NCBI RefSeq assembly: GCF_003018255.1
Contig: NZ_CP027440.1
Source of the DNA: Escherichia coli
Lineage (GTDB): Bacteria > Pseudomonadota > Gammaproteobacteria > Enterobacterales > Enterobacteriaceae
Direction: 5' to 3' (one strand)
DNA: 64,000 bases
This document shows, piece by piece, positions 54,585 through 55,838 of the stretch; position 1 is the first letter of the stretch, and each line of letters starts with the position of its first letter. A program made the position numbers and the translations under genes. A model generated the notes under the pieces. That model saw nothing but the letters and a program-made list of their open reading frames with translations, did no database searches and had not been told where the DNA came from.

Positions 54585-55517
54585 ATGGATGCACCGAGTA
54601 CCACACCGCATGACGCGGTATTTAAACAATTTTTAATGCATGCGGAAACGGCTCGTGACTTTCTGGATATCCATTTGCCAGCGGAACTACGCGAACTGTG
54701 TGACCTCGACACGCTGCATCTTGAGTCGGGGAGTTTTATTGAAGAAAGCCTGAAAGGGCACAGCACTGACGTGCTTTATTCCGTGCAAATGCAGGGTAAT
54801 CCCGGTTATTTGCATGTGGTGATTGAACATCAAAGCAAGCCGGATAAGAAAATGACCTTTCGCATGATGCGCTATGCCATTGCCGCCATGCACCGGCATC
54901 TGGAGGCGGATCACGATAAGCTGCCGCTGGTGGTGCCGATTCTGTTTTATCAGGGCGAGGCCACACCTTATCCGCTCTCAATGTGCTGGTTTGATATGTT
55001 TTACTCGCCGGAGCTGGCGCGACGCGTCTATAACAGTCCTTTTCCGCTGGTGGATATCACTATCACACCGGATGACGAAATCATGCAGCACCGGCGGATC
55101 GCGATTCTCGAACTACTGCAAAAGCATATTCGCCAGCGCGACTTAATGTTATTGCTGGAGCAACTGGTCACGCTGATTGACGAAGGGTACACTAGCGGAA
55201 GTCAGTTAGTTGCCATGCAAAACTATATGCTGCAACGCGGTCATACTGAACAAGCGGATTTGTTTTATGGTGTGTTGCGAGACAGGGAAACGGGAGGGGA
55301 GTCTATGATGACGCTGGCGCAGTGGTTTGAAGAGAGGGGAAGACAGGAGGAAAGGCAGGAGGTAAGACAGGAGGTAAGACAGGAGGTAATACAAGAGGTT
55401 AGACAGGAAGTAAGACAGGAATTCGCCCTGCGTTTTCTGAGTAAAGGGATGTCTCGGGAAGACGTTGCAGAGATGGCAAATTTACCTCTTGCTGAGGTTG
55501 ATAAGCTGATTAGCTAA
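54585..55517 (+). CDS. rpnC: Recombination-promoting nuclease RpnC (YadD; YhgA-like family)
   Basis: 310 aa; C-terminal tail with tandem repeat RQEERQEVRQEVRQEVIQEVRQEVRQE; synteny next to panD/panC. Confidence 0.88.
   Translation: MDAPSTTPHDAVFKQFLMHAETARDFLDIHLPAELRELCDLDTLHLESGSFIEESLKGHSTDVLYSVQMQGNPGYLHVVIEHQSKPDKKMTFRMMRYAIAAMHRHLEADHDKLPLVVPILFYQGEATPYPLSMCWFDMFYSPELARRVYNSPFPLVDITITPDDEIMQHRRIAILELLQKHIRQRDLMLLLEQLVTLIDEGYTSGSQLVAMQNYMLQRGHTEQADLFYGVLRDRETGGESMMTLAQWFEERGRQEERQEVRQEVRQEVIQEVRQEVRQEFALRFLSKGMSREDVAEMANLPLAEVDKLIS
55340..55420 (+). repeat. Imperfect 12-bp tandem repeats (AGACAGGAGGTA-like) inside rpnC 3' region
   Basis: gacaggaggaaaggcaggaggtaagacaggaggtaagacaggaggtaatacaagaggttagacaggaagtaagacagga. 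Confidence 0.85.
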
Positions 55518-55585
55518 GTTATCTGCATTATCAGTTATAGCCAGATAATTGTTATTGTTAACTGACCAGATAATTAAGGGAACAT

Positions 55586-55838
55586 ATGGAAATAAAGACA
55601 CGGAGAGAAACCAGGCAGACGTTGGCGCAGTGGTTTGAAGAGAAGGGATTTCAGAAGGGATTTCAGAAGGGATTTCAGAAGGGATTTCAGAAGGGATATA
55701 AAGAGGGGATATAAAGAGGGGCTCCGGAAGGTAAGGCTGGCCCAGCGTCTTCTGAGTAAAGGAATGTCTCGGGAAGACGTTGCAGAGATGGCAACTTTAT
55801 CTCTTACAGAGGTTGATAAGCTAATTAACTCTAACTAA
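55586..55838 (+). pseudogene. Duplicated, frameshifted remnant of an rpn-type C-terminal tail with a different tandem repeat
   Basis: TLAQWFEE followed by 4x GGGATTTCAGAA (GFQK), then in another frame LLSKGMSREDVAEMATLSLTEVDKLINSN, paralleling the rpnC tail ...TLAQWFEE...FLSKGMSREDVAEMANLPLAEVDKLIS. Confidence 0.7.

Follow-up and report, generated by a model that had tools for sequence, protein, structure and literature searches.

A probable rpnCSs pseudogene downstream of rpnC in Escherichia coli, frameshifted by a 13-nt tandem duplication within a single locus haplotype

In the Escherichia coli contig NZ_CP027440.1, the 3′ end of rpnC (yadD) is followed by what appears to be a second, broken copy of itself, and the question raised by this locus is whether that copy is debris left by exchanges between Rpn tails or a gene in its own right that has decayed. 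The window, i.e., the whole 64,000-nt stretch of this contig that was analysed, contains the E. coli locus made up of panD (53931-54311, minus strand), rpnC (54585-55517, plus strand), panC (55934-56785, minus strand) and panB. The segment at 55586-55838 on the plus strand is very probably a pseudogenised allele of rpnCSs, the gene for a free-standing second version of the small RpnC antitoxin, which would derive from a tandemly duplicated 3′ end of rpnC. rpnCSs is already known: it was reported downstream of rpnC in some strains and as being derived from rpnC (Zhong et al., 2023; PNAS 120:e2307382120, Fig. 2I; PMC10400941). The allele found in the window is an unremarkable, haplotype-specific pseudogene of that gene.

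The resident gene rpnC encodes RpnC-L, the full-length 310-aa PD-(D/E)XK nuclease toxin. Residues 7-207 correspond to Pfam PF04754 (YhgA-like; E=6e-87), the Rpn family model TIGR01784 of NCBIfam matches the protein with 275 bits, and an identical protein (WP_053290698.1), annotated as rpnC, is carried at locus L001. The C-terminal end reads TLAQWFEE-RGRQEERQEVRQEVRQEVIQEVRQEVRQE-FALRFLSKGMSREDVAEMANLPLAEVDKLIS, with RQEV-type repeats after TLAQWFEE; these 4-aa units are encoded by a 12-nt repeat array in helix 1 of rpnC/rpnCS (55340-55420, plus strand), which TRF describes as 6.8 copies of AAGACAGGAGGT with a period of 12 and 85% matches, and whose copy number varies among strains. Nested in frame within rpnC lies rpnCS (55305-55517, plus strand), the cognate small antitoxin ORF of 70 aa (MMTLAQWFEE...), which is intact here and whose ATG at 55305 has a GGAGG (55293-55297) 7 nt upstream. 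With its nuclease domain and an in-frame internal start preceded by a Shine-Dalgarno sequence, the adjacent rpnC presents, judging from its predicted features, the make-up of an Rpn (YhgA-like) toxin gene with an intragenic antitoxin.

In this family, the tails are hypervariable, and the RpnS proteins, translated from internal starts, block the toxic RpnL nuclease; for K-12 rpnC, ribosome profiling together with SPA tagging established that RpnCS is translated from the internal start (Zhong et al., 2023). Both tail hypervariability and separate translation as intragenic antitoxins had been mentioned in the initial annotation, and the published work bears them out. The 4-aa repeats sit in the long dimerisation helix, and RpnCL is blocked only by an RpnCS with the same number of repeats, one additional 4-aa repeat being sufficient to abolish neutralisation (Zhong et al., 2023). 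Antitoxin function and repeat-number specificity are taken here from that literature.

The rpnC tail at 55310-55517 recurs downstream at 55618-55838. Repeat searches of the window resolved a direct repeat of 91 nt with 90% identity (55425-55515 vs. 55740-55830) and a second family of 89 nt linking 55310-55398 to 55618-55706, and pairwise alignment of the two tails yielded 83% mean column identity, the homology starting at the TLAQ codons and extending about 20 nt past the stop codon. This likeness is far beyond chance. The copy has its own ATG at 55586, separated from the stop codon of rpnC by 68 nt; its TLAQWFEE begins at 55619, and its product opens MEIKTRRETRQ-TLAQWFEE, followed by four KGFQ units and KGYKEGI before a stop codon. 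The KGFQ (or GFQK) units, which begin at residue 20, are encoded by a perfect 12-nt repeat array (55641-55697, plus strand) comprising 4.8 copies of AGAAGGGATTTC with 100% matches (TRF), including four full GGGATTTCAGAA units. The C-terminal part, LLSKGMSREDVAEMATLSLTEVDKLINSN (ending in LRKVRLAQRLLSKGMSREDVAEMATLSLTEVDKLINSN and a stop codon), lies in the +1 frame with respect to the ATG at 55586; this 3′ remainder (55719-55838, plus strand; GLRKVRLAQRLLSKGMSREDVAEMATLSLTEVDKLINSN) and the rpnC tail at 55425-55515 share 90% of their nucleotides. Thus, the second TLAQWFEE about 70 nt downstream of rpnC, the four perfect micro-repeats and the displaced frame of the C-terminal part, all pointed out by the initial annotation, were recovered by alignment and by repeat and frame analysis.

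That description did not include the cause of the frameshift, which is a tandem duplication of the 13-mer GGGATATAAAGAG, present as two exact copies at 55693-55718 (plus strand) and detected by TRF as a period-13 repeat of 2.5 copies at 55689-55721. The second unit brings a TAA (55712-55714) into the original frame, ending the truncated 5′ ORF (55586-55714, plus strand) after 42 aa (MEIKTRRETRQTLAQWFEEKGFQKGFQKGFQKGFQKGYKEGI). Deletion of one 13-mer in silico restores an uninterrupted 79-aa ORF ending in DKLINSN. Intact alleles have a single 13-mer, those of L011-L013 have two and those of L001 and L014 have three; PGAP calls the same allele type a "frameshifted" pseudogene in L001 and L011-L014. 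An allele with more than one copy of the 13-mer is a null allele for the full-length RpnCSs product. The same tract has also been hit in an intact allele: a 75-aa protein retrieved from ENA (P0004) contains an in-frame duplication of the 8-aa GYKEGLQK (24 nt); the 13-nt duplication of the window, which involves this tract too, is out of frame.

Free-standing small Rpn genes (RpnSs) are expected to share homology with the C-terminal end of the rpn gene beside them, to stand directly downstream of it as separate genes with their own start codon and ribosome binding site, to carry variable 4-aa repeats starting 8-20 residues after the initial methionine, and to have an intact ORF for the whole small protein. 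The copy in the window shares with the tail of rpnC both 91 nt at 90% identity and the TLAQWFEE block, it has its own ATG (55586) with an SD-like TAAGG at 55575-55579, 6 nt before it, and its repeats start at residue 20, with counts that vary between strains. Its ORF stops after codon 42 and the remainder lies in the +1 frame, which makes the copy a pseudogene of the RpnSs family, not a functional member. The copy occupies the same site between rpnC and panC as the RpnCSs gene of Zhong et al. (2023), has the same origin from the rpnC tail and displays the same variability in 4-aa repeats, which were reported to vary in RpnSs proteins also. Its orthologues include intact annotated alleles, among them WP_000404121.1 and WP_039005036.1. 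It departs from the published gene by its inactivating 13-nt tandem duplication and by its four GFQK repeats, compared to zero to two in the intact alleles seen. Loss of rpnCSs by deletion or fusion has been reported; frameshifted alleles are not mentioned in that article, and SPA tagging of free-standing copies was carried out there only for the analogous RpnESs (YpaA), the synthesis of which it demonstrated (Zhong et al., 2023). Like rpnCSs, ypaA/rpnESs of K-12 is a free-standing copy of an RpnS tail located directly downstream of its parent gene, in this case rpnE; it differs in stemming from an independent duplication, that of the paralogue rpnE, and in being intact in K-12.

At the protein level, the rpnCSs product matches positions 213-273, the C-terminal part, of TIGR01784 (E=1e-9 to 3e-10). 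Searches of the repaired protein against Pfam returned no DUF4351, only a repeat-driven match to Yae1_N and weak helix-turn-helix (HTH) matches. An AF2 model of the repaired protein is helical throughout (pLDDT 67.8), with a confident C-terminal half. RpnA-S (PDB 7TH0), the intragenic antitoxin of RpnA, is a small protein of three helices encoded by the 3′ part of its rpn gene; it dimerises through its long first helix, which is also the site of insertion of the 4-aa repeats. Its sequence similarity to RpnCSs lies below detection by phmmer or profiles, and searches of PDB sequences with the single protein and with a profile did not find it, matching instead the designed repeat protein 8vd6. 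Comparison of the AF2 model with the PDB by Foldseek gave no match at E<=0.001, 7TH0 was not recovered, and HTH domains ranked at the top. PADLOC returned no hit for RpnC or RpnCSs. Since neither DUF4351 nor 7TH0 was matched, assignment to the RpnS family rests on homology with the RpnC tail and not on an independent family model.

The two-copy arrangement was found in 1,421 of 5,426 complete E. coli genomes (26%), the others having a single tail of approximately 318 bp. K-12 MG1655 is devoid of rpnCSs, and its rpnC-panC spacer is just 73 nt long. An intact annotated rpnCSs CDS of 65-71 aa, starting with MEIKTRRETRQTLAQWFEE, is present at L002-L005, L007, L010, L015, and L016, and the ORF is intact in most of the sampled carriers. 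A search of 5.8 billion protein clusters provided about 90 free-standing alleles from E. coli, Escherichia marmotae, Escherichia fergusonii and other Escherichia, the intact ones measuring 57-77 aa. Three blocks are kept across alleles, namely the N-terminal extension M[E/D]IKTRRETRQ, TLAQWFEE and SKGMSREDVAE, and nearly all length changes between alleles are multiples of 3. The intact alleles of the databases contain zero to two GFQK units, at least three being encountered only in frameshifted alleles; the high counts in the latter would fit a relaxed constraint after inactivation. Neither the truncated peptides nor intact alleles with three or four repeats had an exact match in a collection that also lacks a known RefSeq allele, which makes this result uninformative. 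The initial annotation had viewed the copy as a remnant, the footprint of past exchanges; that description falls short of what is a named gene with its own start codon and SD-like sequence that is intact in most of the carriers sampled. One further locus, L006 (E. coli JNE151685, 1777-1986), had been considered as a second type of decay based on the PGAP label "incomplete; missing N-terminus," and was rejected: an intact 69-aa ORF is found there, with the usual ATG and an E8V difference.

The spacer between the rpnC stop codon and the rpnCSs start codon (68 nt; 55518-55585, plus strand) is kept in all two-copy strains. The ribosome binding region of rpnCSs is predicted to be unstructured (z=+1.1), the spacer can form only a weak hairpin (-7.4 kcal/mol, z=-1.7), and the hairpin following the rpnCSs stop codon is also weak (z=-1.1). 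No consensus sigma-70 promoter was found on the plus strand of the spacer. Given this lack of a promoter and the weak hairpins after both stop codons, co-transcription of rpnCSs with rpnC/rpnCS by read-through is plausible. No Rfam family was detected in 54300-56000. No other part of the window resembles the spacer significantly, and neither the spacer nor the MEIKTRRETRQ extension has a detectable source in rpnC or in the window. A duplication reaching upstream of TLAQ, suggested by RDRET...TLA in rpnC and KTRRET..TLA in the copy, was considered and rejected, the local alignment of 55200-55309 with 55518-55617 scoring 18, no better than shuffled sequences (mean 19.1 +/- 3.8). The spacer also contains a 10-nt direct repeat, CCAGATAATT, at 55541-55550 and 55566-55575, 25 nt apart.

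More than one 13-mer was found in only five of the 5,426 complete genomes, all five of which are called frameshifted pseudogenes by PGAP; this distribution was obtained with a query spanning the 13-mers, all other carriers matching as the allele shorter by one unit. Two 13-mers are present in strains 2017.09.02CC, 200164, and E04, and three in JNE112863 and JNE23-011. The same five genomes are the only ones 100% identical to the window over 54320-55304, the next best reaching 99.0%, and the lesion is hence restricted to one haplotype. Within this haplotype, the number of 12-mers ranges from two to four and that of 13-mers from two to three: the window and E04 have four 12-mers and two 13-mers, 200164 three and two, 2017.09.02CC two and two, JNE112863 three and three, and JNE23-011 four and three, the truncated peptide measuring 34-42 aa accordingly. 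The six occurrences of one SNP-free 2-kb haplotype thus display five repeat configurations of rpnCSs and one change in the rpnC array, i.e., 12-mer and 13-mer copy numbers are still changing. The change in rpnC is the gain of one RQEV repeat in E04 (L013), the RpnCS of which is 74 aa long instead of 70; as it took place within the SNP-free haplotype, the toxin/antitoxin repeat tract of rpnC is also changing on a short timescale. These six occurrences provide a rough handle on the rate at which dodecamer tracts change, and the repeat slippage suspected in the initial annotation agrees with both arrays gaining and losing units between strains.

The possibility that the six strains form a single clonal lineage was ruled out by comparison over 25 kb, where identity to the window is 98.5-99.5% and SNPs fall in mosaic blocks (yadE, the 45-49 kb region and a fimbrial adhesin gene), which indicates a shared locus haplotype rather than a clone. 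The SNP-free core extends over 53953-59180 in 200164 and over 53930-56005 in JNE112863.

Together, these observations suggest the following scenario. A tandem duplication starting at the TLAQWFEE codons of rpnC and reaching about 20 nt past its stop codon would have given rise to rpnCSs, whose intact alleles are predicted to produce a small helical protein with a long first helix bearing the hypervariable 4-aa repeats that set the specificity of Rpn pairing. In the haplotype of the window, a slipped-strand or microhomology-mediated duplication of GGGATATAAAGAG would then have shifted the frame by +1 and placed a TAA in frame, such that translation from the ATG at 55586 should stop after 42 residues and the two C-terminal helices should no longer be made. 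The truncated product is probably non-functional; some residual activity may persist, as the 42-aa product retains most of the predicted dimerisation helix. Since rpnC and the intragenic rpnCS (55305-55517) are both intact, the Rpn toxin-antitoxin pair itself should be unaffected.

Several other explanations can be weighed against an inactivated rpnCSs allele. That the copy is nothing but tail-exchange or gene-conversion debris, a non-genic scar that never was a gene, would agree with its being a partial duplicate of rpnC and with the fusions between copies observed at L008, P0020, and P0021; such a scar would hardly be expected to have its own ATG with an SD-like sequence, an M[E/D]IKTRRETRQ extension conserved across Escherichia species, and an ORF that stays intact in most sampled carriers despite a hypermutable repeat, with length changes nearly always in multiples of 3, and the gene is recognised as rpnCSs in the literature (Zhong et al., 2023), all of which makes this reading highly improbable. 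A reversible contingency switch, in which slippage of the 13-mer would turn RpnCSs off (at least two copies) or on (one copy), is very unlikely as well. Slipped-strand contingency loci of Neisseria and Haemophilus are comparable in having within an ORF a tandem repeat with a unit length not divisible by 3 and a copy number that differs between close relatives, and the 13-nt unit, found in two or three copies among strains with an otherwise SNP-free 2-kb haplotype, conforms to this description. Unlike these loci, rpnCSs has a 13-mer in only two or three copies, expanded states that are all off and no on state in the haplotype: no one-copy member of the haplotype exists among the 5,426 genomes, all six members having two or three units, expansion concerns only five of about 1,400 carriers, every copy number of at least two is off since the second unit puts the TAA in frame, and a two-unit array of 13-mers would contract only rarely.

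Two further possibilities would grant the frameshifted allele a product of its own. The 42-aa peptide, reduced to helix 1, could conceivably act as a decoy binding the oligomerisation helices of Rpn proteins, given that the long first helix of RpnAS forms the dimer interface (Zhong et al., 2023) and that both TLAQWFEE and the repeats survive in the truncated ORF, behind a ribosome binding region predicted to be unstructured. Its GFQK-type repeats nevertheless differ in sequence from the RQEV type of the resident RpnC, and its length varies freely between 34 and 42 aa within the haplotype, as expected of unconstrained sequence, which leaves such a role scarcely credible. As for programmed +1 ribosomal frameshifting that would restore full-length RpnCSs, an SD-like GAGGGG directly precedes a rare AUA codon followed by UAA, an arrangement superficially like that of prfB. 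This is extremely improbable, the allele being rare (five of 5,426 genomes, one haplotype) and the site not conserved across lineages; moreover, the sister alleles with three 13-mers would need a different shift, and, judging from codon-anticodon pairing, the tRNA decoding AUA cannot pair again after a +1 slip.

Tail exchange between the copies does occur in other strains. RIVM_C037794 (L008) has a single rpnC, the tail of which switches to rpnCSs sequence at SKGMSREDVAEMA|TLSLTEVDKLINSN, and strain 746 (L005) represents its parental-type arrangement with two copies; in P0020 and P0021, rpnC is fused to the whole rpnCSs tail with a crossover at TLAQWFEE. The rpnC::rpnCSs fusions thus involve two different crossover points. 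At L007, the repeat types are reversed, KGIE-type repeats being found in rpnC and RQEV-type repeats in rpnCSs. Recombination between the copies, as invoked by the initial annotation, is therefore real elsewhere, and such fusions had already been reported (Zhong et al., 2023), but neither tail exchange nor gene conversion is needed to explain the allele of the window, whose 13-nt duplication is no by-product of tail exchange.

The role of the intact copy is a separate matter. In all 14 two-copy loci that were read, the helix-1 segments (WFEE to SKGM) of RpnCS and RpnCSs differ in length by 2-24 aa, and the repeat type usually differs too. Under the published rule of repeat matching, this mismatch would mean that an intact RpnCSs is not expected to neutralise the toxin of its neighbour, and a simple back-up antitoxin function is therefore doubtful. 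The mismatch raises the question of what the intact copy is used for, whether as an antitoxin for another Rpn, a donor cassette or something else; it concerns the intact alleles, not the pseudogene of the window, and is the only aspect of the locus that might reward experiment. It is conceivable, though unlikely, that rpnCSs is an alternative-tail cassette and not a back-up antitoxin, recombination swapping the rpnC tail such that the specificities of toxin and antitoxin change together. If this were so, a tail swap could, e.g., escape a phage-encoded RpnS mimic, the frameshifted copy of the window could remain a donor of its 3′ half, by crossing over beyond the 13-mers in the manner of L008, and slippage of the 13-mer would merely accompany the hypermutability of this repeat tract.

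The locus matters mainly for annotation, where rpnCSs pseudogene is the appropriate label and neither "transposase" nor intergenic debris describes it. RefSeq names for rpnCSs indeed vary, including "transposase," "ISNCY family transposase," "hypothetical protein," and "RpnC/YadD family protein."

The surroundings of the locus also show traces of recombination. Compared to 200164, 43 SNPs are found in the approximately 1.2 kb at 52700-53952 (yadE and the yadE/panD junction), 38 of which lie in the 53-54 kb bin; they stop abruptly at 53952 and none occurs in the next 5.2 kb. A sharp recombination boundary thus adjoins the rpnC locus, and JNE112863 is similar, with its last SNP at 53929. Downstream of panB, the fimbrial-like adhesin gene at 58100-59400 (yadC position) differs from that of JNE112863 by 178 SNPs per kb and from that of 200164 by a single SNP, a highly divergent allele having been swapped between otherwise similar backgrounds. 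Finally, a palindromic CGTCATCGCCATGACG able to form a 6-bp hairpin is located downstream of rpnCSs at 55870-55885, where it overlaps a 14-column indel; the window, L001, and L004 have the segment, whereas L002, L005, L007, and L008 lack it.
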